A stretch of 53,223 nt of DNA, filler included, from Diploschistes diacapsis (GCA_023645945.1; 3 parts of 3 records of this genome joined end to end with filler, not necessarily neighbours in it); one strand, 5' to 3'. Counted from the first letter of the whole stretch, positions 1-42,957 are shown. The notes: a model not told the origin generated them from the sequence alone. Program-made: numbers and translations.

Positions 1-8
1 CCCCTCAC

Positions 9-2036
9 CTAGAAGTCAAACCTCTCCTTCCCCCTCCGAACAAACCGAACGGGAATATACGTCCCACCCCTCAACTGGATCGTAATAACCACCCCCATCC
101 TCTCCCTCATCTTCTCATTCGCCTTCTCACACGCCTTGTCCCAAATCTCCCTCCTCTCCCCCTCACCCATCCTTTCAACTTCCGCATCACTCGCCCACTC
201 GTCCACGGCCAGCTCCACGCTCCACTGGCTCATGATGAGCGCCAAGACCGCCAGGATCTCCACCTGCGCGAACCGCCGCCCGATGCACGACCGGAAGCCC
301 TCAGAGAAGGGAATGTAGGAGCCCTTTTCGGGCTTGAAGAGCGAGGCCGCCATGTCGGCCGCCGTGTTGACGCCTAGGCCCTCCGTCTCCGTGGAGCGTG
401 CGAGGGCGTTGGGGGCGAGGCTGTTGGGGGCGAGGCTGGTGCCTTTTGCCTGCTGCGTAGGAGAGGTTTTGGCCGGGTCGTCGAGGAGCCAGCGTTCCGG
501 GCGGAATTCTTCGAGGTCGTTGTCGGTGTTGGAGGTTGGGTGGACGCGGCGCGTGGGGTGCGTCGGCGGACCGGCGGGCCAGTAGCGCGGGTTGCGGTGG
601 ACGCAGACGGCGGAGAGGTTGACGAGGGTCTTTGCAGGGACGGTGTACTCGCGGCCATCAATGGTGAGGGTTTGCGGCGCGGTGGGCATCTTCGGGATGT
701 GGATGGCCGGTGGGATCAGGCGCAGGGCTTCGTTCATGACGGCGCCGGTCATGCCGCCGAAGAGGTGCGGGAGGTCCTGCTCGTAGTCCCATTCCTCCGG
801 CTTGCGGCCTTGAAAGATGTTGTCCAGGTCGGCCTGCAGGCGGCGCTGCGAGGCCGTGCACATGGCGAGGTATGTGAGGCAGAAGTGGATGGTGTTTGCG
901 GTCGTTTCGTGGCCGGCGAGGATGAAGACGAAGGCGTTGCCCATGATTTCGTCGTCGCTTAAGGTCTCGGCTTCTCCTTTCTCGAGAGAGTTGTCGGCGC
1001 CGTAGCCTGCGGATTTGACCAGAGCGCCCATTAGATCCATGCCGCCTTCGTCGCTGAGTCCGGACGCCAGTTCGATTTTCTTCTCCTGCACCATTTCTTT
1101 CATGTATTTACCCCACTCGACGTATGATTGCCAGGCCAATTGGGCATTTTTGAATGGGAGACGTTCTGGATAATCTTAGCGTATCTTTTTGAGATCGAAG
1201 GTACCATACTTACTCAGCAGCCAGTGAGGCAGCGCAACCACGAAAGTAACGTTGTGCAAGAGGTTTTCGAGAGCCTGCGTGTAAGTCATGCTGTGTCCTG
1301 CACCGAGCTTGGTGGAGTCCATCTCGCTGGCTTCCGCTAACTTTTCACCTCCCGCGGTAGTCTGGATCCCAGGCCACAGCAGCCTAACACCAAAACCGGC
1401 ACGGCTGATAACGTGGAGAGTAAGGCGCATACAGTCGTGGGCCACGCTATCAATTGTGCGATTCTCGTTTCCGTCGTTGCCAGTCCAGCTTCTGATCATA
1501 TAGGAGCCTTGCGCCAAGCTCTCCGACCACACCAGATGATTGTTCTTCTCGGTAAAAGGCGGACTTGTAATCTTTCTATGCCTTCTCCACAGATGGCCTT
1601 CCACGCTCACCAAGTTCCGGCCATAGATGTTGAGCGCATGATACATATGGCCAGGCTTAGGAAAGTCAATCCGTCTCGTTGTCATCTGACTGATGGCCTC
1701 TGCGTTTGCACACCACAACATGCAACCACCAGGAGACACAGTCAAATATGTTGCTGCATCGTTACCATCGTAATTTGAAAACAGATTGTCCCAAGAGTGC
1801 ATCGAGCTTATTCTCGAGGACCAAAGCGGCCTGTATTTCTCGGGCAGCATCTTGAAGAGGCGGACCACAGGCTGATTGAGGACAAGCCATAGTCGCCCAA
1901 AGACGAAGACAGGTACCACGATGTAAGGTAAGCCGGATGCTTTGGCCGCATCAATGTTCTTCTTCCATTGCCATAACAGGTTCAAGGCCCAGTAGGCGCA
2001 CAAAGCACCTCCTGCGAGGAGCACGACTGGATACAT
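9..2036 (-). CDS. Cytochrome P450 monooxygenase (~659 aa; 2 exons, intron 1166-1213)
   Basis: N-terminal membrane anchor, AGHETT I-helix, EALR (ExxR), PERW and FSEGFRSCIG heme motif. A 48-nt GTAAGT...CTAAG...CAG intron joins ORFs 1176-2036 and 9-1139 in frame (823+1157 nt = 660 codons). Confidence 0.95.
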
Positions 2037-3448
2037 TGTGCTGTCTCCAATACTAGAGCTTGGCTTTTTGCTTCAGGATGATCTAATGTGTTGAACAGTC
2101 AGGAACAAGGCTGACTATGCTAATGGTGGAGTCTCTGCTAACAAGGTTACTATGAATAATTGTAGTGGCGCGGTAAGAAAACCTCGGAAACCAAGTCAGG
2201 AGGCGCAGCACCTATGGGTTCTGACATGTGCAAGGGCGGGGATAGAAATCGGAGTAGGTGAAGGGTTGATGAAAGGGTTGAAGGAGCAAGACGTGTGTTA
2301 AGAAGATTGAATATGTCGCTTTGTCTTCATTCTGCAGGGACGATGATTTCTCAAGTGGCCCAGTGGCCAGTGCATCATTCGATGTATCCATGGCAGCACC
2401 CATCGGCCTTCGTAGGAAGGCGGGATGGTTCCCATACGAGGAAACGGCTTGCATGCGATAGTACTTTGGGTTAGCTCAGTCACGATGCATTGTTGCTGTA
2501 GTATTGGTCGTAAAGTAAGATCGCACTTGATTTCTTGGTGGGAGTTTTTCATGATCGATCATGATGCCTCCCTCGGCTTTGATCGTAAACCATACCCAAA
2601 CAAGCCATATGCTTTTCATGCCTTCAAGCCTGCATGCCGCTAAAATCCGAAGATCCTACAGTCATCCCCAGCGTAGTATTTTACAGTATTACGCCTACTG
2701 TCCATTCGTTCTCAGATGACTTGAGTAGATGAGGCATAATGATAGCGAGCTCGGTCTGTTGGATCACATCTGCCCAATCAAGGTTCCCTCGGAAGACTCG
2801 CTTCCGCTTGACGCAAAAGTTCGTACCGCACGCAAAGTCTCAACCACCAACGAAGTAAATCCTGTCCGTCAGAATACCAGAATAGTTTACCAATATGAAT
2901 TCGCCAGCTAGCATCCTGAGGCCGTCTATGATTCGATGTCATTGTTGATCTCTCGAAGCTTTTGCTCGGTACATAAACTAGGTATCCAATCCATGCCAGC
3001 GCTTCAAACGAAGGACAAGCTTAGGTAATCGGTGAAATGCGGTGGATGTTGTCTCAGCCCTGTAGCATGCGACCTATTTTCTCTCATCATAACTGTGCTG
3101 TAATGGTAATGGCCATTCTCTGCTCGTTGAATTACTCTGTCGCTTGGGTCTCGACACTCCAATGAACCTCCAGAAGCAGTCTCTGCTTCCATATAGTGTA
3201 ATTCAGCTAATCTTTCCTGCCACACTCTCGACGATGACCATGTGTCCATGCCCAGTCTGCTACCTTTGGAAGTGTTGCTCGTTGATGGACACAAATGCTG
3301 TGAACACCCTTACGATTCTAGTTATGCTCCGAAGGAAGTGGTCTTCTTATGCTTGTGTAGTCGGGTTGTTTTTCTGTGATGCTCGAGAATCATCAGCATA
3401 GCTGGTCGCTGCCACAAGGAGAATGGCCGTTCTCAATACTCTCCCTCA

Positions 3449-5682: not shown

Positions 5683-7295
5683 CTACTCGCTCTCGCTGGC
5701 CTCCTCGTCAGACTCGGCGGCCTTCTTCTTCTTCCCTCTCCCCTTTCCCTTTCCCTTCTTCTCGTCCTTCTCCGCTTTCCTGTCTACCTGGTCCTGAATT
5801 TTCTTCCTCTCCTCTTCTCCCTTGGCCGCCAGCTCCTTCTCCAACTTCCTAAACTCCTCGCTCTCGGCATCCATCCCAATCAACCCCTCCAACAACTTAA
5901 TCTCGCTCGCCCACACCCCCTTATCCTCAACCGGCTTTCCATTAGCATCCTTACGATCAATCGGCGTCTCCAACACCATCGGCAAGCCCTCAAACCTCTT
6001 CTCATTCATCACACAATGAAACGCCCTAAGCCCCAAAAAACCCATACCAATATTCTGATGCAGATCCCTGTGCGACCCGAACGGCGCCTTGGAATCGTTC
6101 AAATGCAGCGCCTTCAGATACTTGATCCCCACCACCCTATCGAACGCGTCGAGCGTCGCCCTGAACGTCTCCGCCGTCCGCACATCGTACCCCGCCGCAA
6201 AGACGTGGCACGTATCCATGCACACGCCCACACGCGCCTTGTCCTCCACGCCCGCAATGCAGTCCCGCAGGTCCTCGAACGTAGACCCGATCGCGTTCCC
6301 GCCGCCGGCCATCGTCTCGAGCACCGGCACGACCGTCCGGGTCGCCTTGTGCGCCCTATTCAACGCTGCCGCGATCCTCGAGATGGCCTCCGCCCGGGGA
6401 TGCGCGCCCGTGTTGCCCGGGTGGAAGTTGTAGAGTCGGATGCCCAGGCTCTCGCAGCGGTGCAGGTCGTCGATGAAGGAGGCGTAGGCCTGCGAGGCCT
6501 TGTCCGGCTCGGCCTGCGCGAGGTTCACGAGGTAGGAGCCGTGCGGCAGGACGTGCTCGGATGCGGAGTAGGTGTGGGTTTTGCAGTGGGCGTGGAACTG
6601 GTCACGGTGGCTGTCTTGCAGGGCCGGGTTGTCCCATTTGCGCTGCGACTTGAGGAAGAGGGCGAAGGCGTTGCCGCCTATGTGCAGGCAGTTGGGGATG
6701 CTGTTGTGGACGCCTTGGGGGAGGAGTCAGTGGTTTGGGAAAAGGTGGTAAGGGAGTGGAGGCGAGGGCGGAACGAACCTCCAGCACCGCTGACGTGCGC
6801 GCCTACGAACATCTTGATGCCCTGCGTGCGGGCAGCGAGGGGGAGCATTTCGGCGGCTTTCTCTTCTTTGGTTTTGCGCTTTTGCTTTGGCGGTTTTTTG
6901 ACGTCGGCCTCGGACTCTTGTTCATTCTCCTCCTTGACAGCCTCCTTGACCGTCTTTGCTTTTTTCTGCCCTTTGCCTGAGGGCTTCGTTGTATTGACTT
7001 TGACTTCTTCTATTTCTTCAACAATGGCAGGCTCATGCGCCTTCTTTGTCTCCTTCACCTTCCGCGTAGATTTGACCTCGGTCCGAGACTTCTTTGGTGC
7101 AGCAATTTCGACTTTCTCGATGTGCGCTTCAACAAGCGTATATGCTGCAGAATCTTCGTACTTGACTTCCGCTTTGGTCCTTGTTGATCTTCTGGGTGTG
7201 GCGGATGTCGCTTTCGTCCCTGCTTCGTCTGCGATTCGAGTTTTCTTCGAGGATCTTGGTGATTCTGGCGTTTGCGCTGCTTTTCGCTTGGGCAT
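5683..7295 (-). CDS. APN1: Apurinic/apyrimidinic endonuclease, endonuclease IV family (intron 6714-6778; alternative ATG at 7304)
   Basis: GAHVSGAGG|VHNS across a GTTCGT...AAG intron; LPHGSYLVNL, YNFHPG, LETMAG, CMDTCH, HLNDSK, DLHQNIG, VLETP. K/E-rich N- and C-terminal extensions. Confidence 0.95.
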
Positions 7296-7769
7296 TGCGG
7301 GCATTACAGTAGCTGCAGAATCAAATGTGCCTTTCACTCGATGAAAAGCTATGGCGTGGTAAAGGCTTGATGGTCTAATAGCAAACGAGAGCTCGATGCC
7401 GACGTCCAATTTCCAATCCTTATCTTTACGAAGTCACAAGAAGGGATGATGCCACTAGCTGTTCATCGATGGGGAGAATACGCGTTTGGTATCTACGCGT
7501 TCCTATGCTGAAGGATTGCATGGACCGTGGAATCTGGTAAATCCTACCAAAACCACACCGGGTTCAAACGAGCTTGTTCATCTACAGCGTTAGTTTGGGT
7601 GAACGTTGAGCAGTGGGAATCATTTATTCTAGACGCGGCTAGGAATGTAACGTCAATCCTCGACAACTCCGAGAGAAACTCCTAGCGTCTACTCACCCAC
7701 GGCTCCCATCAGCTTTACCCCTGCTCTTGAATACAAAAGCCTCGTGGAGTTCTTAGTGTCTCAACAGCC

Positions 7770-8939
7770 ATGCGCTTAAAGTCCGTATTGACTCTCGCTA
7801 TACTCCATGGCAGCCAAAGGGCGCTCTCCATCTCCTGTGGCTCTGGCCCCGTCTACTCCAATGACTCGCCAACAGCTTCCATTCCTTTCTCTAAATGGCC
7901 AGACTACTCATTTCCCGAAAACAATGCCATTCTCAACTTCTCGATCCAGACCAATCTCTCTTCCTCGGCTCATTACTTCGAGGCAGCAATGGACACGGGC
8001 TCAACAGGGCTGGCCATATCTGCGCTGGACCTAGGTCTCAAAGGAGCCGACTTCAGTCTCTATCCAAAAGGCACCGAGTATCTGAGCAGCAGTCGACGAT
8101 TATGGCAGGGCTACTGGGTGCCTTCGAACATCACATTCCCAGCTGATGTAGGCAACGTAACGGCACAGGTACCTATCTTACTTGTCGTTCGCAATGGAAC
8201 TTGCTACAATTTCACAAACGGTGACTGTACCGATCTGAGACGGGCGGTCGAGTGGCCGACTGGCATCAAGTACATGGGCGTTGGATTCGGTCGTGGTAGC
8301 GATGAGCAGCCTCAGGCCTTGCCTGATAAAGTACTGTTCATTAATGTTGTATCTATAAACTGTACCAAGGTTGATATGCATGCCGGTTATATCATCACCC
8401 AGCAAGGCGTTCAAGTCGGCTTGACTGCAACAAACACGGCGGGTTTCAACGTTACAAAGCTGGATCTTAGTCCGCAGTCGCTTTCTCTATTGGACTGGAA
8501 AATGGTGAACATGTCAATTGGAATAGATAATTCTACCTGGAATCATGGTCAAGCTTTGTTCGATACTGGCATATCGCAGTCTTATATAAGAGTCGACCAA
8601 GCAACGTATGATCGTACACAAACGGAATTCTTTAACGGCCACAACGTTTTGAAGCCCGGCAGCAGGGTCAGCGTGATCGTTGGAGATGTGTCGAGCCCGA
8701 TCGCGTATTACAATGTCGTCGCAAACGATACTGAAAATCCACTAAACCCCGCCCTGGGCCAGTACGTGCTCGAGAAGCCGTCGGCCACAAAGGCACCTTT
8801 CATCAACACTGGGCGGTCCTTCTACAAAGGCTTCGATGCGATGCTTGATGCAGAATGTGGCTGGTTTGGCCTCCGATCGAACAGCGCGCCTCAGCTTGAA
8901 TCTTGGGTCGATGTTACGCAGCAAAAGCTAGAGTTGTGA
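7770..8939 (+). CDS. Secreted aspartic-protease-like protein (pepsin-like bilobed fold), intronless, 389 aa
   Basis: Signal peptide-like N-terminus; two catalytic-type motifs MDTGSTG (D75) and FDTGIS (D265), each followed by a hydrophobic-Gly motif (YMGVG; FINTG); many N-glycosylation sequons. Confidence 0.8.
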   Translation: MRLKSVLTLAILHGSQRALSISCGSGPVYSNDSPTASIPFSKWPDYSFPENNAILNFSIQTNLSSSAHYFEAAMDTGSTGLAISALDLGLKGADFSLYPKGTEYLSSSRRLWQGYWVPSNITFPADVGNVTAQVPILLVVRNGTCYNFTNGDCTDLRRAVEWPTGIKYMGVGFGRGSDEQPQALPDKVLFINVVSINCTKVDMHAGYIITQQGVQVGLTATNTAGFNVTKLDLSPQSLSLLDWKMVNMSIGIDNSTWNHGQALFDTGISQSYIRVDQATYDRTQTEFFNGHNVLKPGSRVSVIVGDVSSPIAYYNVVANDTENPLNPALGQYVLEKPSATKAPFINTGRSFYKGFDAMLDAECGWFGLRSNSAPQLESWVDVTQQKLEL

Positions 8940-9789
8940 AGGTCAAGCTCGGAAAAACTTCATATGATATAAATTGATGATTTCTGAACGCAAGTGTCAT
9001 GTTGTTGACGAATCACAACTCTCTACGGCTAGCTCCTTGTCGAAGTTCAAAAGGCCGTCGTTGTTTGTTCTTTATGTCATTGGAGTGACTTTCCATAGTT
9101 CAGGTAAAGGGTTCGTACGTAGCTGCACTGCTGGCAAGGCTTCCACGTCAGTTCAACAGCAAAGCGGTCTGACTAGCTATTCCAGCGAAATGCATCAATC
9201 GTTGCAACCAGGGATGAGGGAAACCGACAGCCGGATACAACGCAATCCAACGGTGTGTTCAGAGAACCTGCAATGTCGACGTTTAGGTACACCCAAAAGC
9301 TCAGACCCACACCACGCCTTTAGATGCAAATATGAAAGAAACTTGGGGTAATATATCTCTGTCCTTGATTTTCTACCTGCATCTTTCAACTTCGAAATTC
9401 TTTCGGCAACCTTCTAATACTTTGTTACACAGGTGCGAATTTGCAGCGATCATTGGGTTTCCCATTTATACGGTCATATAAACCACAGCCTTGAAGCAGC
9501 TCACAATATCTTCTCAAGTTTGTTGCATAAGTTAAGTTGTAGCGGAGGATTAAAGGTTGTTCCAATAATACTATTGATGCTTAGTTATCCACCTAAAACA
9601 AGGTATGGAGTGGAATTTATCCATGAAAGCATACCTCTTGGGTCGTGACTTTCTATTGATACCGGCTAGTAGGCTCGGGGCACTAGTCCAATGCAAGCAT
9701 GCGTAAAGGGGACCAACGCAACCAGTTATCCAACAACTCTGATCACTCTTCTGTGGAAAACCCCCCGAACGATACATCCAGGAACATCA

Positions 9790-10248
9790 TCAGGGTGGAA
9801 GGGGCCAAACTCGCCGCAAAAGTCGACCGACTCGCTTGAACTTCGAAGGGTCGATCCCGTGACGCGAAGCCACCAGCTCAAGCTTGTGGTCTCTGCTGGG
9901 ATTCACCACCTCCCGAACGGACCTATAATGCGGGGCTTTGCAGAGCTTAGCGGCCGTGGTGTAGAACATCCGGCGCGAAGTGAACTTGGCCACCATGTAT
10001 GCATATACGAAGGCGTTCCGAGCAGTGAAAGGCGGCAGACTGTCGATGGGAAAGCCACCGTGCCGCGCTCGGCTGATGGTGAAGAACACGTCGGACCTCT
10101 CGCTGAGCTTCTCCAGAGACGTCCTTGCGGCTCGACATTCCTCCAGCTCCTCACGCAGTCGCTCTTCGTGCCATGCAGATGGTGTTTGGCTTGGCAGGCC
10201 CAGGAAGTTGTGCCAATGCCTCAATAACGTTTCCAATTTGGAGCTCAT
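9790..10248 (-). CDS. Small all-alpha protein with a MazG-like NTP pyrophosphohydrolase motif (152 aa)
   Basis: ATG-initiated intronless ORF. REELEEC...LSERSDVFF gives E34xxE37-x12-E50xxD53, and a later KFTSRR segment supplies basic residues. Function is inferred from the motif only. Confidence 0.65.
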   Translation of the reverse strand: MSSKLETLLRHWHNFLGLPSQTPSAWHEERLREELEECRAARTSLEKLSERSDVFFTISRARHGGFPIDSLPPFTARNAFVYAYMVAKFTSRRMFYTTAAKLCKAPHYRSVREVVNPSRDHKLELVASRHGIDPSKFKRVGRLLRRVWPLPP

Positions 10249-11212
10249 CTTCGTGAGAATATAGGTACAACAGCTTGGTAGGTGTAGTAGGTAAGAAAAC
10301 AGGTAAAATAGCTTAGTAGGTATAGCTTGTATGATTTATCTTGCAAGCTTTGGGATTAGTTGGCAGGATGGGTTAGACTTTAAATATATGTGAAAAGCCG
10401 CATTTTCGCTCGAAAACGGGATAGGACCGCACAGTGTAGTCCAGGCAGGAAAGCTGTAGGAAAGCATTTGTGGTTTAACGAGCCTGTATGGGGTGAATTA
10501 CAGGCATGCAATGTCTAATCCTTGACAAAGGCAGTAACAACAGGAGTCATACATTGTAGAAGCCAGTTTTTCAATTCGATCGAGCCCACCACCAGTGCGT
10601 CGTCGGTAAAAAGTCAATAACGGCTCCATTGAATGACCCGCCAATCAGTAAATCTGAATATACAGACATCAAGTATTTTTATAGAAAATATATAACCAAG
10701 TTCTGTGTGCTAGTCCACATAATCGCAATTGTGACATTATGCATATCTTTAGATACCATACTTATATATAGTAGCCTGCCTTCGTGCACCAGCAGGGTAC
10801 TTGATACGTTTGCATGCGGAAACATTGCAGCTATGTCAAAGGCAACCAGACCGCTTAGATGATTTGCTAGCGATTGTGAACATCAGAACGTGGAAAACCA
10901 AGGCAGATCTGAGACTCTAATGGGGCAGAGGCATGGGCAAATATGAACCGACTGCAGGCCGTAGAGCTTAGCAGCCGCAGCGTCAAATACTCATGCAGGC
11001 AAAGTAGCCGAAGGGGCAAACATCCCCAACGTTATCCACGATCGGCTTGAGCAAGCTGTATGAGGTAATCAAGGATAGGGGATGGGGTTATATCTTTCTA
11101 TCTCCTCTCCTCTTTAGCATGTCTCGATACTCATAATCTTATCATCACTAAGCAGCGTCTCAGCACCCGTTTCCTATCTACCATTTTTACCCGTATTCAA
11201 GTGTTAGCGGTC

Positions 11213-13323
11213 ATGGCGTCTACCAGCATGGACGCACCAAGCAACAGGTCAAACCTTATAGCAAACCGGCGGCTAAGTCAGCAAATCTCCCCCGAGGATC
11301 AACATGAATCTAGCAAAGCGGTAGTTGTGGGCCTGTACGGCATTCCAGGCGCCGGCAAGACCACTTTGCTCAAACAGCTGAAAGCGCAACTCGCGCACGA
11401 GCCGTTTGCATTCTTTGAGGGTTCTGAGGAGATTTCCAAGCTCCTTGAAGGTGGCCTCGCTGCGTTCCAAACCCTGGACGAGGAGAGTAAAAGAGGCTTC
11501 CGGCAGACCGCAATCGACAACATTGGAAAACAATGTTCTGACAAGAACCGGGTTGGAATCGTCACTGGACATTTCATGTTTTGGTCTGGTATTGGAACCC
11601 CGAAGAAGCTGGAAAGACCGTTTACACGCAGAAGGATCTGGACACGTTCACACACATTCTTTACTTGAACATTCCAGCCGATACAATCGCGAAATACCGT
11701 CGTCAGGACGCTGGCACGAGAGATCGGCCGTCCCTTTCTGTTTCGGACCTGAATCAATGGCAGGAAGCTGAAAAGAAACAGCTAAGCCAGTTATGCCGCA
11801 AACACAGGATCTTGTTTTCAGTTGTCTCTCCTAGACCAACAATCCTGCATAGAGTCTCCGATTTACTGCATCATTTTCAGACTCAATCTGAGGAGCAGAG
11901 CCTATCACTCGCACGGATGAAGTTGGACGACGCCCTCGCCACTTATCGAGGCAAGCTGAAGACAGTAGTGGTTTTGGACGGCGATAGGACGCTGGCTGCT
12001 GAGGATACTGGTAAACTATTCTGGAAGATAGTCTCCAAATCTGAACAGTTGAGGAGCAAAGAAGATCCATTGAAGGAGTTATTCAACAGCTCCATGCAGT
12101 ACTCATACACCGCCTTTTGTCAGGCCACGCTGCTATATGAAGACGCGGTTGATGACCAAGAATTCGAATGTGTCTGCCATGACGTAGCATTAGCAGTACA
12201 GATGCACTCAGACTTTGTGTCTCTGCTGCAAGAGGTTGCAAGGCATGAGCATGTCCAAGCGGTGGTCATCACTTGTGGACTGCGCCGTGTCTGGGAAAAG
12301 GTACTTGAGATACAAGGGCTTTCCAAGACAGTAAAGGTTATTGGTGGGGGACGTATTTCGGATGGCCTTGTCGTCACAGCTGCTGTGAAAACCGCCTTGG
12401 TTACACGTCTGAAAGAAGTTTACCGTGTGTACGTTTGGGTGTTCGGAGACAGTCTGCTAGACCTAGGTATGATGGGTAAAGCGGATCGAGCCATTGTGGT
12501 CGTTGGAGATCAGAGAGCCAGAAGCCATCGTATGGATGCAGAGCTGTCGAACGCACTCGATAAGCATGGTCTCCGGGCATGCCAAGTCGTACTCCCTGCC
12601 AATGCACCACCGCGGTTGGATACAACCATTCTTCCTCTAATCCAGCTTGGGCAGCAAGAACTCCATGCCATCATGCGCCATGACAGTCACCATGTTGGGG
12701 TCGAAGTTATCGACGCAACGAACAGGAATGCGACCAAACTGCTCACAACACCAACGCGCGATGCAAAAGTCACCGGCCCAGCCTTAAGGAAGGCCCATCG
12801 GCGTATCGGAAGGTATTTGGTGACCGAATTCTTAACTGAAATGATCGGACTCGAGGAGTATCAGATTACGCATGTTCTGGGAATTCCCACCAGCGGCTTC
12901 CAACTTCTCCATGAGAAGCAAACAACAATTGTGGCGCTGATGCGCGGTGGAGAGCCCATGGCCTCTGGTGTGAGCGAAGCCCTGCCACTCGCTGTGTTCG
13001 TCCATGCCAGCCGCCCTGAGGATCTCAAAGCTCACCATATAGACGGGCAACTGACCGTGTTACTAGTCGATTCAGTTGTCAATACCGGAAATTCAGTAAT
13101 AGAGTTCGTGCAACGAGTTCTCAATCTATCCCCAACTATCCGTGTTGTAATCATTGCGAGCGTCGTTCAATCTCAATCAGTCTCGGAAAATAGCCAGATT
13201 CAGGCACTCAGGCACCGCACGAACATCAGCCTCGTGGCACTTCGCCTATCTGACACCAAATACACTGGAAGCCGTGAGACCGATACCGGTAATCGTCTTT
13301 TTAACACGACGCATTTACCTTAA
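11213..13323 (+). CDS. Tri-domain protein: P-loop nucleoside/nucleotide kinase-like + HAD phosphatase + uracil-phosphoribosyltransferase-like; frameshift at ~11579-11595
   Basis: GLYGIPGAGKTT Walker A; HAD motifs VVLDGDRTL, ITCG, conserved K and FGDSLLD; PRTase motifs LMRGG and VLLVDSVVNTG. ORF 11201-11668 and ORF 11581-13323 overlap in different frames with no plausible intron at the junction. Confidence 0.85.
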
Positions 13324-14900
13324 AAGTAATTATAGCGTCAATCATGCCTGTTGAACGACTATCGCCAAGTCTGGTCATAGGGATGGATGGCCGAAGACAC
13401 ATGTTCGACTCCGCTGTGAGATAGGACTTGGGCTTTGCAAGAACTTCCGGTGGTAGCGAGATATAGTGTATATATTCGTATACTCTAGCTGGACCAAGCC
13501 AAATCCAGGACTATGAATCATTAGGGGAGTGCTTCAGCCAGTTCATGTTCGAATCCATTATGAAGCTGTAATTGCCAGCATGAGCGGAAGTAACGCTCAT
13601 GTTTCAGACCGGTTGAAACCCCTAACGGCTCGCCGTATATGGGATGTTGCTGCTTTGATGCTTTCCTTTCCCTGTTCTTCATCATTTGCATGCACTGATC
13701 CGAGAAAGAACGGGTCTTATGGCCCTATAATCTAGCTTTTCTCGGGAGCGCCAAACTATTCGGCGCCCGTTGCTGTTCCGAGTTATTGAAACGTGTACTT
13801 GTTCCGTCATGTGTGTCTGTGAACGAGTGGTGCCCCCCGATCACGCTGAGGACGAATATCATACTCAGTTTTGAGGGTAGTGTTACCTGTGATGGTATCA
13901 AGAGACTCAAGAGCGCATTACTCATGGCTCTCGTTGTACTTCTTGGGCTCCGCATAACCAGCGACGTGGTTGAAAGAGTCTAAAGGCTCTTCTGGCAGCG
14001 AATACTTGATGAAGTGGCAGCTTCAGGTGTGTTTCGGTGAGCTGCGGATAGAAAGAGATGGCCGCCTCATCTTACTCTGTGGGCTAAGTCGAAGCCATAT
14101 TGTATGGACGCCTTCACTTCGGCATTTATATGCCATCTAGTTCTGGTCTGGAAGCCTCAAATTTGATCGTTGTAGTTACGAGCGTAGATAGTTTCAATGA
14201 TCCCGGTTTCACCACCGGGGACTGCATGCAGTTGGTCGGGCAGTGACACGAATAAGTTGATGGATCACTCCAATGACGACTTGTAAGGCTAGTAGTGCCC
14301 CATGAAGACATCTGATGGAGCTGAGCTTAACGATAACTGGAGATATTCTTCATCAGAAGCTGGCCAAGCTTCGAAGGGTTGCGCTTGGAGTGTCAGCACG
14401 GCACTCTCCGGTTGTCTCAGGAGCACTCTCCACATATAGTGTGCCTGCCAAGTTTAGCTTATATCTAGTTCCCATAAGTAATGTGTATGCATTACATATA
14501 CGAGCCACAGCTGATAATGTTGCAAGAAGGGTTATCCAGATATCGATGATCTAAGCTCTCTAAGTGAGATTCAGATTAGGTAATACATTATTGTCACATG
14601 ATACGAGCGTATGAATAATTATCAGCCCTATAGTATTTGAGCGGAACAGGTAGTTGCTCTGAGTCAAACGGGATTTGCTCGCTTGATCGCCAGATACTCT
14701 ATGGGAAGTTCCTGGCGCTGTTTGTGAAGTAAGGAAAGCACAAAAGACTTTAGTGATCCAAGCTATCAGTGGTCTAGCACTTGTTCAAGGATTCAGAATA
14801 CAACACACACGAGGGGTCAATATCAAAAGCCCCACAGTCGTGTCGTGAAGCATTGGAACAGGTACGATTGCCCGCGTTGTCGCCACTCAGGGCTGCCAAT

Positions 14901-16937
14901 ATGCCGCCAAAGGCTACGACTCAAGTTGCTTTGGGTAGTCAAGGTGGCCTCGCTGAGAAGGATGCAATATTCAAGGGTGGCTTTCTCGCCAGCGTCTACC
15001 AAGAGAGGCCCAAGGGGTCGCCCGGAATCGAGAAGGTCACCACTCGTTTTCCACCCGAGCCCAATGGTTTCCTCCACTTGGGTCATAGCAAAGCCATCAC
15101 AATCAACTTCGGGTTTGCAAGGTACCATGGCGGTGACTGCTACTTACGGTTTGACGATACCAACCCCGGAGCTGAAGAAGGCAGGTTTTTTGATGCCATT
15201 GAAGAGATGATCGCCTGGCTAGGTTTTAAGCCGATTAAAGTTACCTATTCTAGCGATAACTTTGACAAACTGTATGAGCTCGCTGAGCAACTAATTCAAG
15301 ACGACGGGGCTTATGTCTGCCATTGCACCCAGGAGCAAGTCAAGGCTTCAAGAGGCGTAGGTGAAGACGGTAAAGGAGGCGGGAAAAGGGCTGCCTGCGC
15401 CCATCGAGATCGGCCAATCAGCGAGTCGCTGAAGGAGTTCAGAGCGATGAAAGACGGTAAATATGCCGCCGGAGAAGCCGTACTACGGATGAAGCAAGAT
15501 CTTTCTGACGGGAATCCTCAAATGTGGGATCTTGCTGCTTATCGAATACCCAAAGAAAGCCGACCCCATCATCGGACTGGAAGGACCTGGAAGATTTATC
15601 CCACGTATGACTACACACATTGTCTTTGCGATAGCTTTGAGGGAATCACCCACTCGCTCTGTACTACTGAGTTCGAATTATCGAGACAGTCATATGAATG
15701 GCTTTGCCACCGGGTTAAAGTATACACGCCCATGCAGAGGGAGTTTGGTAGGCTGAGCCTTGAAGGAGTGGTTTTGTCGAAGCGAAAACTCACGGCTCTC
15801 GTCCAGAAAGGCTATGTCCATGGCTGGGATGATCCAAGGCTTTACACCTTAATTGCTCTCCGTCGCCGTGGAGTACCTCCAGGAGCCATTCTATCGTTCG
15901 TCAATGACCTTGGTGTCACAAAGGCTAACGCATTCATTGAGGTTACAAGGTTCGAGCAGTATCTTCGGAAATACCTGGAGACTACTGTCCCACGCCTGAA
16001 TGTGATTCTAGATCCTATACCTGTGGTAATCGAGAACCTCCCGGATGAATACCTTGAGATGGTCGAGCTGCCTTTTTCCAAGGACCCCGCATTTGGAAAT
16101 CACTCCATACCCTTCACCAAGACTGTTTACATTGAGCACGGCGATTTTCGCGAAGAGGACTCGAAGGACTACTTCCGGTTAGCGCCTGGAAAGGCGGTTG
16201 GTCTACTCAAGGTGCCGTACCCCATTATAGCTACAGGTTTCGAGAAGGGCAGCGATGGCCGTGTATCAAAAGTACAGGCTACATATGTAGAGCCAGACGC
16301 GGATGGGAAATTCAAAAAGCCAAAGGCATATATCCAATGGGTCGGACACTCTCCCTCGCACCATAGTCCGTTAAAAGCGCGCGTAAGGTACATGCACAGC
16401 CTATTCGACCGAAAAGATCCGGATACGCATCCCGATGGCTGGGAGGCGAGTGTCAACCATAGCTCTGAGGAGTGGTTCAACGACGCACTCATTGAGCCCG
16501 GCTTCCTCGAGATTAAGCGCAGAGCGCCCTGGCCGGAGGAAGCTGGGGAGAAGGGCCTAGGGGAAGGCCAAGCCAAACCCGAGACTGTGCGCTTCCAGGG
16601 ACAGCGGACAGCGTACTTTTGCGAAGACAAGGATAGTGCGCCGGACAATATCGTCTTGAACAGGATTGTTAGCTTAAAAGAGGACACGGGTAAGCAGGAC
16701 GATACGGGAAAAAAGGAGGGCGCCGAAAAGGTCGGGGATTTAGCGAAGAGTGAGAACAAGAAAAGGAAAGAGGATAAGAAAAAGAAGAAAGGTATTGAGA
16801 AGAAGGCTACGGAAAATAAAGACGCCGAGAAAAAGGACAAGGAGACAGAAGACGCGGAGAAGAACAACAAGGAGGAGGAGGGTACGGAGAAGACGACGCA
16901 AGATCTACCACTACGACAGAAGGATACAGAGAAGTAA
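14901..16937 (+). CDS. GLN4: Glutaminyl-tRNA synthetase (intronless, 678 aa from ATG 14901)
   Basis: TRFPPEPNGFLHLGH (HIGH motif), LRFDDTNP, YPTYDYTHCLCDS, ITHSLCTTEF, VLSKRK, GWDDPRL; anticodon-binding region; K/E-rich C-terminal tail. Confidence 0.95.
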   Translation: MPPKATTQVALGSQGGLAEKDAIFKGGFLASVYQERPKGSPGIEKVTTRFPPEPNGFLHLGHSKAITINFGFARYHGGDCYLRFDDTNPGAEEGRFFDAIEEMIAWLGFKPIKVTYSSDNFDKLYELAEQLIQDDGAYVCHCTQEQVKASRGVGEDGKGGGKRAACAHRDRPISESLKEFRAMKDGKYAAGEAVLRMKQDLSDGNPQMWDLAAYRIPKESRPHHRTGRTWKIYPTYDYTHCLCDSFEGITHSLCTTEFELSRQSYEWLCHRVKVYTPMQREFGRLSLEGVVLSKRKLTALVQKGYVHGWDDPRLYTLIALRRRGVPPGAILSFVNDLGVTKANAFIEVTRFEQYLRKYLETTVPRLNVILDPIPVVIENLPDEYLEMVELPFSKDPAFGNHSIPFTKTVYIEHGDFREEDSKDYFRLAPGKAVGLLKVPYPIIATGFEKGSDGRVSKVQATYVEPDADGKFKKPKAYIQWVGHSPSHHSPLKARVRYMHSLFDRKDPDTHPDGWEASVNHSSEEWFNDALIEPGFLEIKRRAPWPEEAGEKGLGEGQAKPETVRFQGQRTAYFCEDKDSAPDNIVLNRIVSLKEDTGKQDDTGKKEGAEKVGDLAKSENKKRKEDKKKKKGIEKKATENKDAEKKDKETEDAEKNNKEEEGTEKTTQDLPLRQKDTEK

Positions 16938-20127: not shown

Positions 20128-22034
20128 ATGGGTCTCGGAGTTCTCAACATACGGGAGCAGAACGTACCCGGTGAGCTGACGTACTTGCAGTAAATGAATT
20201 TCAGAGTCGCTAATAAGAGTTGCCAGGTACGGTGAACGTGTTTGAACAGGAAGGACAAACAAAAGAGGCTGGACATCTAAAGAAACATGGCGACATCATC
20301 CTCGTTCCGCAACCCAGCGATGACCCCAATGATCCATTAGTATGGATAGGTACCGCATCAATGGCTCAGGGACCAATGCTGAAAATTGCAGAACTGGCCG
20401 CTATGGAAGCGCGATCTGATCCTGTTCATCCTCTGCCTCATCTCCCTCATCGCATCTACCTTGTCGCCTCTGCTTGCCGCGAACACCATCACCCTCTCGC
20501 TCTGGTTCGAGCTACCGTTCACCGAAGTCGCACTTTTGACCGGATATCATCTGCTTGGCGTTGGGGTTGCAGGCTTCATCTTCGTCGCGTCAGCGAGGGT
20601 ATGGGGGAAGAGGCACCTATATCTTCTTGGGACTCTCATCATTATTATAAGTAGTGCATGGGGCGGAGGCAGCGGGACAAATTACTCAAGCATATTATGG
20701 GCGAGGATATTTCAGGGGGTCGGACTTGCGCCGTTCGAAGCCCTCGTCAATGCCAGCGTGGGAGATTTGTACTTTGTCCATGTACGTTCTTTGATTGCCT
20801 CTAATTTGAGCCCTTACTAATGGCTCCAGGAACGAGGCTTGCGCATGGCCGCATCAAACATGTCCTTGTTCGGCGGTGCCTTCTTCACGCCTATTCTAGT
20901 AGGCAAGATAACAGCTACGTTAGGTTGGCAGTGGACATTCAACCTCATCGCCATCTTCGCTGGAGCCCTTTTCCCCTTCATCTTCTTTTTCGTACCCGAA
21001 ACCGCTTATCGTCGAGCTGACCATCTCAACACTGACATGCAACGACTGGACAGTGTTGGGCACGACAGCACGGGGCAGAGACATTCAGGGAGTACCAATG
21101 GCAATTTAGCGAACAACGACAACATTGAAGTTGCACAAAGGGGACACCACGAGCCGAACGGCAGCATGAGCCCTCCGGCCAAGATGAGCTACGCTCAGAG
21201 CCTCTCACCTTTCAATGGTCGCAAGACAGACGAAAACTTCTTCAAGCTACTCCTGCGACCCTTTCCTCTTTTCTTCCACCCTGCTATTTTCTGGGGCTGT
21301 CTCATACAAGGCGCACTTATCGGCTGGACCGTTATGATTGGCGTCGTCCTGGCTGCCATCTTCCTTGGCCCGCCTCTATGGTTCGATCAAGTGGTCACTG
21401 GCTACATGTACACTGGTCCTTTCATAGGAGCGGTTCTCGGCTTCCTGCTTGCCGGTCTGCTGTCAGATTGGAGCACGAAGCTTATGATTCGAAGGAACAA
21501 TGGCGTCTTTGAGCCAGAGTTCCGCATCGTGCTTGTTATTCCACAGATGGTTTTCGGATGTGTGGGTTTGTATGGCTTTGGGTGGGCAGCGGTTAACGTC
21601 CAACCTGGAGGATACTTTTTGCCGGACTTTTTCTTTGCTCTGGAAGTTATGGGAATGGTTGTCGGCGCTGTTGCAAGCGGTTTGTATATTGTTGATGCGC
21701 ATCGTAAGCTTCCCATTCAGCCCAAAGCTTATCTTGTTAATTGTTCCTAGGCGAGATCGCAGTAGAAGCCTTTACCTGTCTCCTCATTTTCAAGAACATT
21801 TTCAGTTTCGGCCTCACCTGGAGCGCATATGACTGGCTGATCCAAGCTGGAATCGGGCCGATTTTCATCGCTATGGGGTCTGTACAGATTGGCATATGTC
21901 TTTTGAGTATTCCTATGTGTAAGTGCTTCGCTCATCATTCATGCGTTATCTAACCTTTGTCAGATGTATTTGGGAAGTGGAACAGGCATTTGACGAGAAA
22001 ATACGATGTTCTCAAGATTCTGCATCTCTCCTAG
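20128..22034 (+). CDS. MFS transporter (HOL1-like), 6 exons
   Basis: MGLGVL start, PQPSDDPNDPL|NWP, WGKRHLY, ARIFQG, GWQW, VPET, FEPEFR. Frame-consistent GT-AG introns at 20171-20226, 20340-20391, 20782-20829, 21704-21750 and 21919-21963. Confidence 0.93.
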
Positions 22035-41380: not shown

Positions 41381-42957
41381 CTATCCTTTAGCGGCACCGG
41401 CTTTAATCAGTAGAATGTCGCCATCCTCAACCACGTAGTCCTTCCCTTTCGTCATTATCTTGCCGTTCGATTTGACCGCCGCTTCGTCTCCAAGCTCCTT
41501 GAGAGTCTCGTAGTTGAACACTATGGCTTGGATGAAGGTCTTTTCGAAATCTGCGATCAATCTTGTTAGCAGTACGTCCTCTCTGTATGCCCAAATAGTC
41601 AAGGTCCAAGACGGAGCGGAGCTTACCAGTGTGGATCACGCCGGCCGCTTGTGGCGCCTTAGTGCCCTTACGGATAGTCCACTGTCTGACTTCGTCTGCA
41701 CCTGTGGTAAAGAAACTTCCGAGCTGGAGCGCTTGACGCATGGTTGTGACGACCTTTGGTAACGCGGACTTGGTCCCTAACTTCTTGCATTCCTCTTCTA
41801 CCGCGGCATCGTCGCCAAGGTGGGTCAGACGTTCTTCAAAGCAGATTGAGAGTGGTATGATCGGATCGCCTGCTGAATTCTCTTTGACCCACTCCGCGAT
41901 CTTGGGCAGATGCTTGTTCTTCTGCCTGATGTAGTCTTTTTCGCTTAGGTTCACTAGGTATACTACAGGTTTCGCTGTGAGAAGGAACAATGGGTTGATA
42001 ACTTCAATCTAGACACACTGACGTTAGCAGAAGCCCTCAAAAATTAGTCCGAGAAAGCCAGAAATTTGAAAATTTTCGTTCAGAGTTGGATTTTCTCTCA
42101 GTACAGCCTCGACGTGAGTTTTGAGTGAGACTGTTCGAAGAGCTGGGATTATTCGAGCTTGTAGCTCTTGTTCATCTCGAAAATAGGTGCGGAAGGAAAG
42201 GCTCGATCATATGTACCTCTTTGGGGCCCCAGTGCTCCTTGCGTACATCCTTGCCGGCCTGCAGCCATGCTAAAATCTTCTCGACGGTTGCCTCCTCTTC
42301 CTTTAACTTCTTCATCTCTAGACTTTGGCCACCTCTTCTGGTCTGCTTCTTTAAATTCTCTAGCGCCTTTTCCACGAATTCGATGTCTTTTATCCGCAGT
42401 TCCTCGCTGATGATATTAAGGTCTCGAATCGGATCCACGTCTCCTTCAACGTGAATAATTTCGGCATCGTCGAAGCATCTGACGACTTGAAAGATGGCAT
42501 CGACGGCTCTAATGTGTGATAAGAAAGCATTGCCTAGGCCTGCACCTGTCGAGGCGCCTCGGGTAAGTCCAGCAATATCGTACACCGTCAAATTCGCGGG
42601 TACTTCTGACTTGGGCTTGTAATGCTGACATAGCCAGTCGTAGCGAGCATCTGGTACTATGACTCTTGCCTCCTCTGGTTCGATGGTCGCGTATGGAAAA
42701 TTCTATAGATACTTGAGCGACTATTGCAAAGAACATGGAAAGACGATCTCACAGCCGGATTGCCTAACGTGCATTTTGTGATAGCTTGGAAGAGCGTTGA
42801 TTTTCCAACATTAGCAAGGCCGACCTAGTGGTGTCAGTGCCAGGTCTATGCTGTATGGATCGCCACAGGCTGCCGCACTCACGATCCCGCTTTTAAGATT
42901 GTTTCCAGGCCTGCCTAGAGGTACCTTCTTCTCTTCTTCTTTCTTTTTGGGCGCCAT
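41381..42957 (-). CDS. OLA1: Obg-like ATPase OLA1/YchF (multi-exon)
   Basis: [99 protein letters not shown]. Confidence 0.96.

Follow-up and report, generated by a model that had tools for sequence, protein, structure and literature searches.

A recurrent fungal gene pair encoding a probable all-alpha NTP pyrophosphohydrolase and a kinase-HAD-phosphoribosyltransferase protein

We describe here two adjoining genes in a 53,223-nucleotide stretch of DNA (filler included; hereafter the window) from the Diploschistes diacapsis genome assembly GCA_023645945.1. The smaller gene encodes a 152-residue protein that probably belongs to the all-alpha nucleoside triphosphate (NTP) pyrophosphohydrolase superfamily, which includes MazG, HisE and the dimeric dUTPases. 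The larger gene encodes a nucleoside monophosphate (NMP) kinase related to the archaeal adenylate kinases, a HAD phosphatase and a phosphoribosyltransferase (PRTase) resembling uracil phosphoribosyltransferase (UPRT), all in one polypeptide. The two genes recur side by side in other fungi. What is new is a family within a known superfamily and its conserved association with a three-domain enzyme that has yet to be characterised. On balance, and with a probability only a little above even, we think that the pair forms a conserved two-gene fungal module that would run a salvage-plus-sanitation cycle acting on some uncommon base or nucleoside, probably of the pyrimidine type. The layout of the pair in the window is as follows.

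9790-10248, minus strand: small gene, an ATG-to-stop open reading frame (ORF) of 152 amino acids; unannotated family, probably of the all-alpha NTP pyrophosphohydrolase superfamily.
10249-11212: 964-bp spacer separating the two start codons, which diverge in the window.
11213-11596, plus strand: 5' part of the large gene in frame A, which encodes the N-terminal portion of the NMP-kinase-like domain, including the Walker A motif at 11339-11362 (AAA_17; homologue alignment).
11596-11597, plus strand: site of a 1-nt deletion, AA in the window versus AAA in relatives, which shifts the frame within the kinase domain (contig comparison).
11597-13323, plus strand: remainder of the large gene in frame B, with the end of the kinase, the HAD-IB phosphatase, the UPRT-like type I PRTase and the stop codon (Pfam).
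About 11968-12474, plus strand: HAD-IB phosphatase domain of the large gene (Pfam PF12710).
About 12718-13308, plus strand: UPRT-like type I PRTase domain of the large gene (Pfam PF14681).

The pairing is, on the evidence of the sequences compared, not a product of chance. A total of 40 fungal metagenome loci were retrieved with an alignment of the small gene and searched locally by tblastn with the large gene of the window. Large-gene sequence lies 39-1341 bp from the small gene at 30 of the 40 loci, being complete or reaching the contig end at 22 and reduced to fragments of the kinase part at 8; at 7 of the 10 loci without it the contig ends no more than 750 bp from the small gene. Collapsing near-identical loci left 22 non-redundant groups. 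A complete large gene adjoins the small gene in 11 groups, 2 have only fragments of it, 3 have none although at least one side leaves space for it, and in 6 the contig is too short to judge. Half of all groups thus show adjacency, or 11 of 16 once those with too little sequence are set aside, in keeping with the linkage that the original prediction, a reading of the DNA alone, had made a test of its proposal. The same prediction had taken the divergent arrangement for a sign of co-regulation, and as a conserved feature this did not hold up: just two of the 11 linked groups are divergent like the window, as against four with the large gene downstream on the same strand, one with it upstream on the same strand, and four that are convergent. 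Because adjacency survives such rearrangement, it points to functional coupling rather than to a shared promoter.

Named genomes give the same picture, with consecutive locus tags for the two genes in Stereocaulon virgatum (N7G274_009719/009718) and Aplosporella prunicola (K452DRAFT_291345/291344), and nine small/large pairs come from contigs of equal size. No third conserved neighbour family was found among 15 fungal loci, the window included. Four fusion proteins (P0258, P0313, P0277 and P0346) were considered as Rosetta-stone evidence and set aside: the two that were inspected show the small domain cut short and unrelated joining residues. These fusions look like merged gene models of same-strand neighbours and are evidence of adjacency only. 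At one fungal locus (L097) a polyketide synthase fragment with SAT, KS and AT domains (3-3416, minus strand) lies about 2.6 kb upstream of the small gene, whose large neighbour there is a kinase fragment.

The small protein defines a compact and strongly conserved family. A homologue search gave 238 matches at E<=0.01, 120 of them listed, and a profile run against 1.84 billion representatives yielded just 223 proteins at E<=0.001. Among the 120 listed matches, most are about 153 residues long and every source name is 'hypothetical' or 'uncharacterized'; the named fungal sources there are Xylariales, Leotiomycetes, Dothideomycetes, Lecanoromycetes, Pezizomycetes and Orbiliomycetes, together with a few Agaricales. 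Identity is roughly 60% across Ascomycota and Basidiomycota. The protein carries E33-E34-x-x-E37 ... E50-x-x-D53, with the four residues E34, E37, E50 and D53 numbered exactly as had been predicted, and E33 makes the first half of the motif EExxE. None of the 26 fungal sequences aligned departs from E34, E37, E50 or D53, and conservation of E33 is at least 90%. The same alignment of 26 shows a second conserved block in the C-terminal half, comprising R112-E113-V114, N116-P117, K122 and W148-P149-L150. When the alignment is instead made of 20 sequences that include 12 prokaryotic-type relatives (divergent members of about 142-150 residues), E37 remains invariant, E34, E50 and D53 each occur in 90% or more, and both motif halves are retained in almost all of the 12. 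An EEXX(E/D) motif is set out in PMC10014863, together with a Mg2+ site of the same four residues in Mycobacterium tuberculosis MazG (E119, E122, E138, D141) and in the dUTPase of Campylobacter jejuni (E46, E49, E74, D77).

The predicted fold of the small protein agrees with this motif. The AlphaFold (AF2) model is confident (predicted local distance difference test score, pLDDT, 93.1; predicted template-modelling score 0.86) and all-helical, with six helices; the motif halves sit on helices 2 and 3, separated by a three-residue turn. Comparison with 48,161 representative chains using VIA-align placed a dimeric dUTPase (5myd_A) in the top row, with 94 residues aligned at a root-mean-square deviation of 2.8 and a Z score of 8.4, a value that, like the Z scores of about 5-6 among the other matches, falls where common helical arrangements can also give matches. 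MazG, MazG-like, HisE/HisIE or dimeric dUTPase entries make up 16 of the 21 best rows. A second comparison, run on Foldseek's own list, put the C-terminal domain of Escherichia coli MazG in the top row (Z 5.5). In the ESM Atlas the nearest named clusters are PF04447, PRA-PH and MazG, with scores of 0.81-0.84 that serve as leads only, and 8 of the first 25 weak Foldseek rows in BFVD are named dUTPase, NTP-PPase or PRA-PH. Aligning the family profiles to a Patescibacteria MazG alignment with hhalign gave one local match of 11-22 columns that sets E50xxD53 on ELxDV (E 0.012-0.013), at a probability of just about 3%. A complex predicted from two copies of the small protein scored 0.31 against a mark of 0.32, a value that counts neither for nor against a dimer.

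The low hhalign probability and the range in which the Z scores fall have to be weighed against the placement of the small protein in this superfamily, as do several blanks. Foldseek found nothing at E<=0.001 for the model in the Protein Data Bank (PDB) or BFVD, the small protein has no family at E<=1 in Pfam or NCBIfam, the best PHROGs match among the four proteins scanned reached only E 0.017, and PADLOC has no family for the small protein or for a Patescibacteria relative. The family profile searched against PDB sequences returned chance rows only (an antibody Fab and M protein). Motif, fold and profile are each modest lines of evidence, and it is their combination that makes membership of the all-alpha NTP pyrophosphohydrolase superfamily likely; the MazG-like character originally proposed for the protein is supported by the confident model, the structural matches within the superfamily and the invariant acidic residues. 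The curated models for members of the superfamily (Pfam MazG, PRA-PH, dUTPase_2 and dATP-dGTP_PPHyd) leave the small protein unmatched, and its family is distinct from these member families.

The large gene contains three Pfam domains, each above the cut-off of 27 bits. AAA_17 scores 43.9 bits, its profile positions 1-93 being matched in frame A and 92-134 in frame B; the scores of HAD (PF12710) and UPRTase (PF14681) are 72.2 and 137 bits. Motifs noticed at first reading are present, namely the Walker A sequence GIPGAGKT, HAD motif I and the PRTase motifs LMRGG and VLLVDSVVNTG. The DxDxT nucleophile of HAD motif I is intact, reading LDGDRT in the window and MDADRT in homologues. A model of the kinase (pLDDT 80), made from residues 1-235 of an unbroken homologue, has archaeal adenylate kinases as its best Foldseek matches (6ln3, E 6.9e-10, template-modelling scores 0.63/0.72), followed by dTMP (thymidylate) and UMP/CMP kinases, and the profile of the large family also matches an archaeal adenylate kinase (E 0.0028). 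The kinase had been proposed to act on nucleosides or NMPs; the likeness to NMP kinases was confirmed and a likeness to nucleoside kinases was not. Homologues have the Walker A motif, the fold and an intact domain, whereas in the window copy the domain is cut at 11596/97. The large gene accordingly encodes an NMP-kinase-like domain resembling archaeal adenylate kinases, a HAD phosphatase domain and a PRTase domain akin to UPRT in one polypeptide, for which databases offer only the names 'phosphoribosyltransferase domain-containing' or 'hypothetical'.

The large-family profile matches Thermotoga maritima UPRT (1o5o) over the whole PRTase domain (E 2.4e-6). In this alignment VLLVDSVVNTG falls on the phosphoribosyl pyrophosphate (PRPP) loop FLLDPMLATG and LMRGG on ILRAG; the PRPP loop is conserved. 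The uracil-binding loop, which reads GDAGDR in true UPRTs, is TDTGNR in the large family, and the NCBIfam upp equivalogs, whose cut-offs are 114 and 208, score only 37.6 and 35.1 bits. In view of the altered loop and the low upp scores, the PRTase may use a base other than uracil itself.

More distant relatives of the small protein, outside the fungi, are found almost exclusively in Patescibacteria. A prokaryotic survey that scanned one genome per species yielded 80 loci; all 80 come from metagenome-assembled genomes, nearly all of them labelled Patescibacteria (Nomurabacteria, Paceibacterota, Saccharibacteria and Uhrbacteria). Pfam assigned NUDIX to 16 of the 142 flanking ORFs at 36 of these loci (10 loci in all) and Ham1 to two, at 2 loci. 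A hidden Markov model of the NUDIX neighbours matched 12 of 145 immediately adjacent ORFs over the 80 loci, compared with 4 of 381 ORFs at least six genes away, figures to be read with the facts that the model was built from those very neighbours and that many of the loci are mutually related. Such NUDIX and Ham1 surroundings fit a house-cleaning pyrophosphatase. The dUTPase_2 family was also considered for these bacteria, with matches in 2 of 201 Patescibacteria genomes; both proved to be ordinary small MazG-like proteins outside the new family. At a further locus (L127) an ordinary MazG-like gene (1504-1872) is directly followed by an ORF (1881-2441) that is NUDIX-like by eye, and small MazG-type genes of Patescibacteria in general seem to adjoin NUDIX genes, as those of the new family do. 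In a quick tree of 30 sequences a long branch parts the fungal clade from the Patescibacteria clade, and the internal branches of the fungal clade are short. As 14 of the 27 inner branches are poorly resolved, the tree neither supports nor rejects transfer among fungi.

In the window itself the large gene is spread over two reading frames. Frame A (11213-11668, 151 amino acids) meets a stop, and the remainder lies in another frame, open from stop to stop over 11542-13323. Homologues are a single ORF of about 700 amino acids that reads on past the point, just after GHFMFW, at which the window switches frame. Contigs were compared from a lichen metagenome (X1, the probable source, in which the stretch is complete), a related strain (X2; 0.46 of sampled words) and a rock metagenome (X3; 0.30). 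In X2 (depth 101.8) and X3 (depth 5.7) position 11595 is followed by an additional A that brings both parts into one frame, and the X1 contig (10,265 nt, depth 94.3) is identical to the window, deletion included. The large gene is thus broken by a recent 1-nt deletion in this sample and is intact in close relatives. An intron was considered as the cause of the frame change and rejected, since the AAA_17 profile runs unbroken across the junction, which shows a -1 frame change and leaves an intron no space; the relatives differ by the single A. Of the two head-to-head intronless genes originally described, with a spacer estimated at about 965 bp that measures 964 bp, the small one is indeed a single ORF, and the large one is frameshifted.

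Decay extends beyond this deletion. The small gene differs from that of X2 at 10 positions, of which seven change the protein, including the otherwise invariant P152, and the window small protein also deviates at the nearly invariant D64 and W93. Both genes look relaxed in this lineage, and the module is decaying in this genome. Between window positions 9700 and 13400 and X2 there are 61 listed substitutions, 24 of them G>A and 10 C>T, an excess that may reflect a strand-biased mutation pattern or one like repeat-induced point mutation. A second, independent decayed copy occurs at locus L102, where the large gene (7251-9397) is likewise split into a 442-residue ORF and a second frame. At another locus (L107, 6411-9581) there is an additional, near-identical small gene, behind which come first a truncated kinase fragment and next a 643-residue ORF for a DDE_Tnp_1_7 (IS4/PiggyBac-like) transposase; this suggests that a mobile element duplicated or disrupted part of the pair in that fungus.

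The wider surroundings of the pair in the window comprise a cytochrome P450 fragment (9-1172, minus strand), a glutaminyl/glutamyl-tRNA synthetase gene (14778-16934, plus strand) and a major facilitator superfamily transporter fragment (20821-21747, plus strand), none of which recurs beside the pair in other fungi. Scans of the spacer and its region gave no Rfam family at gathering score and no notable repeat. Elsewhere in the window (42077-42182, minus strand) lies a C/D-box snoRNA matching the Rfam family Afu_304, an Aspergillus fumigatus snoRNA, with 71.4 bits where the gathering score is 35. This sequence match is consistent with a filamentous ascomycete genome.

How the two proteins might work together can be framed as a cycle, in which the catalytic activities, a shared substrate and the direction of flux are what we infer. 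By analogy with its superfamily, the small enzyme would hold Mg2+ through four acidic residues on the neighbouring helices 2 and 3 and would convert an NTP to the NMP and pyrophosphate, possibly acting on the diphosphate too. The PRTase domain would make the NMP from a base and PRPP, the kinase domain would raise the NMP to the diphosphate, and the HAD domain would dephosphorylate the NMP to the nucleoside. All four predicted activities would converge on the nucleoside 5'-monophosphate. The pair could in this way salvage an unusual base or nucleoside, with the small enzyme keeping its triphosphate out of the NTP pool.

Parallels to each half of this arrangement exist among known systems. The small protein resembles the MazG-type enzymes (the E. 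coli MazG C-terminal domain, M. tuberculosis MazG, Sulfolobus solfataricus MazG 1vmg, iMazG and DR2231) in being all-helical with EExxE ... ExxD on two neighbouring helices, in the structural matches to its residues 1-67 (Z 5.0-6.3), and in the house-cleaning NUDIX and Ham1 context of its bacterial relatives. It differs from them in the missing Pfam MazG match, in having just 12 residues between the motif halves, in its extra conserved C-terminal half of about 85 residues, and in the range of its family, which in the searches made is confined to fungi and mostly Patescibacteria. The dimeric dUTPases (dUTPase_2), represented by phage 5myd, Leishmania major 2yay and C. jejuni 1w2y, provide the best structural match and the same four-residue Mg2+ site. 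They alone match the small protein over all 152 residues, the VIA-align alignments of the Leishmania and Campylobacter enzymes spanning residues 1-152 with 116 and 112 residues aligned. Unlike them, the small protein has no PF08761 match, and it is shorter than the trypanosomatid and Campylobacter enzymes.

The pairing itself recalls histidine biosynthesis, where the PRTase HisG is followed by the phosphoribosyl-ATP pyrophosphohydrolase HisE. There too a PRTase is paired with a small all-alpha pyrophosphohydrolase, and HisE structures are among our matches; the PRTase described here, in contrast to HisG, is of the UPRT-like type I and shares its polypeptide with a kinase and a HAD phosphatase. 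Yeast Urk1, plant UKL and human UCKL1 are uridine kinase-UPRT fusions that act in pyrimidine salvage, and they likewise join a kinase to a UPRT-family domain. The large protein departs from these fusions in that its kinase is of the AAA_17/archaeal adenylate-kinase type and not PRK-type, a HAD domain is inserted between kinase and PRTase, and the uracil-binding loop is altered.

Several results tell against the salvage-plus-sanitation cycle, among them the altered uracil-binding loop and low upp scores of the PRTase, the missing annotation of the small protein, and the relaxed state of both genes in the window lineage. In addition, no kinase-HAD-UPRT gene was found among the 142 ORFs neighbouring the bacterial small genes, and a search of five Patescibacteria genomes that have the small gene, using the fungal large protein, gave only a 46-residue P-loop match.

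The same components could serve a biosynthetic module following the logic of HisG and HisE, in which the PRTase adds phosphoribose, the kinase supplies or extends a phosphorylated substrate, the small enzyme trims the triphosphate and the HAD domain removes the last phosphate to leave a specialised nucleoside that acts as a secondary metabolite or signal. We regard this as possible, though unlikely. HisE or HisIE structures (3c90, 1yvw, 6j22 and 7bgm) are among the best structural matches and PRA-PH is among the nearest ESM clusters; an accessory pathway would also suit the occurrence of named homologues, among the matches listed, in some fungal orders only, as well as the existence of decayed copies, and a polyketide synthase lies 2.6 kb from the small gene at L097. 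However, no further pathway gene such as a transporter or tailoring enzyme is conserved beside the pair, the PRTase is of UPRT type I rather than HisG type, and the bacterial relatives adjoin house-cleaning NUDIX and Ham1 genes instead of biosynthetic ones. It is more doubtful that the small protein is not, or is no longer, a hydrolase and instead partners the three-domain enzyme in a binding or regulatory role, much as phage dimeric dUTPases also act in signalling, and we consider this improbable. Such a role would fit the tight adjacency whatever the orientation, the origin of the best structural match (5myd) in a study that by its title concerns dUTPases in signalling, and the conserved C-terminal half (R112-E113-V114, N116-P117, W148-P149-L150) that has no MazG counterpart. 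The full metal-binding acidic set is nevertheless invariant, which would not be expected of a purely structural partner, and the bacterial relatives have no such large partner.

The original prediction had also raised a toxin-antidote or nucleotide-depletion conflict system, in which one gene depletes or poisons a nucleotide pool and the other protects. No sign of such a system emerged, and we rate it as slightly more improbable again than a partner role. It would be compatible with the span of the named matches, among those listed, over some fungal orders and a few Agaricales, with near-identical extra copies that carry truncated large genes, one of them followed by the transposase at L107, and with the frameshifted copies in the window and at L102. 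Yet PADLOC is blank for both small-family proteins and gives only a marginal Csx3 row for a large homologue (P0122; E 0.0021, 15.7 bits), Pfam shows no domain in the pair besides the kinase, HAD and UPRT, and the fungal sequences group in a single clade whose internal branches are short. That the adjacency is fortuitous, or the small ORF not a gene at all, is extremely improbable: the small gene does lack a family annotation and 3 of the 22 groups have no large gene nearby, but against this stand 238 homologues at roughly 60% identity, a confident model, and adjacency in 11 of 22 groups in four arrangements.

A more speculative extension, which we consider rather unlikely, is that the pair is an accessory module which fungi can do without and may have passed among themselves, and that it makes or counters a non-canonical pyrimidine-type nucleotide in antimetabolite self-resistance or nucleotide-based defence. 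The three-domain enzyme would then activate the compound and the small pyrophosphatase would police its triphosphate; outside the fungi the small family is almost only found in Patescibacteria.

No paper on the small family or on the pairing was found in the literature searched, which omits most subscription journals. If the salvage-plus-sanitation reading is correct, the small protein would represent a new, unannotated family of the MazG/HisE/dimeric-dUTPase kind, present in fungi and Patescibacteria, and its partnership would provide the first functional handle on the three-domain kinase-HAD-UPRT protein. The two would then constitute a directly testable enzyme pair through which fungi might salvage or sanitise an unusual nucleotide, which would bear on how fungi handle base and nucleoside analogues.

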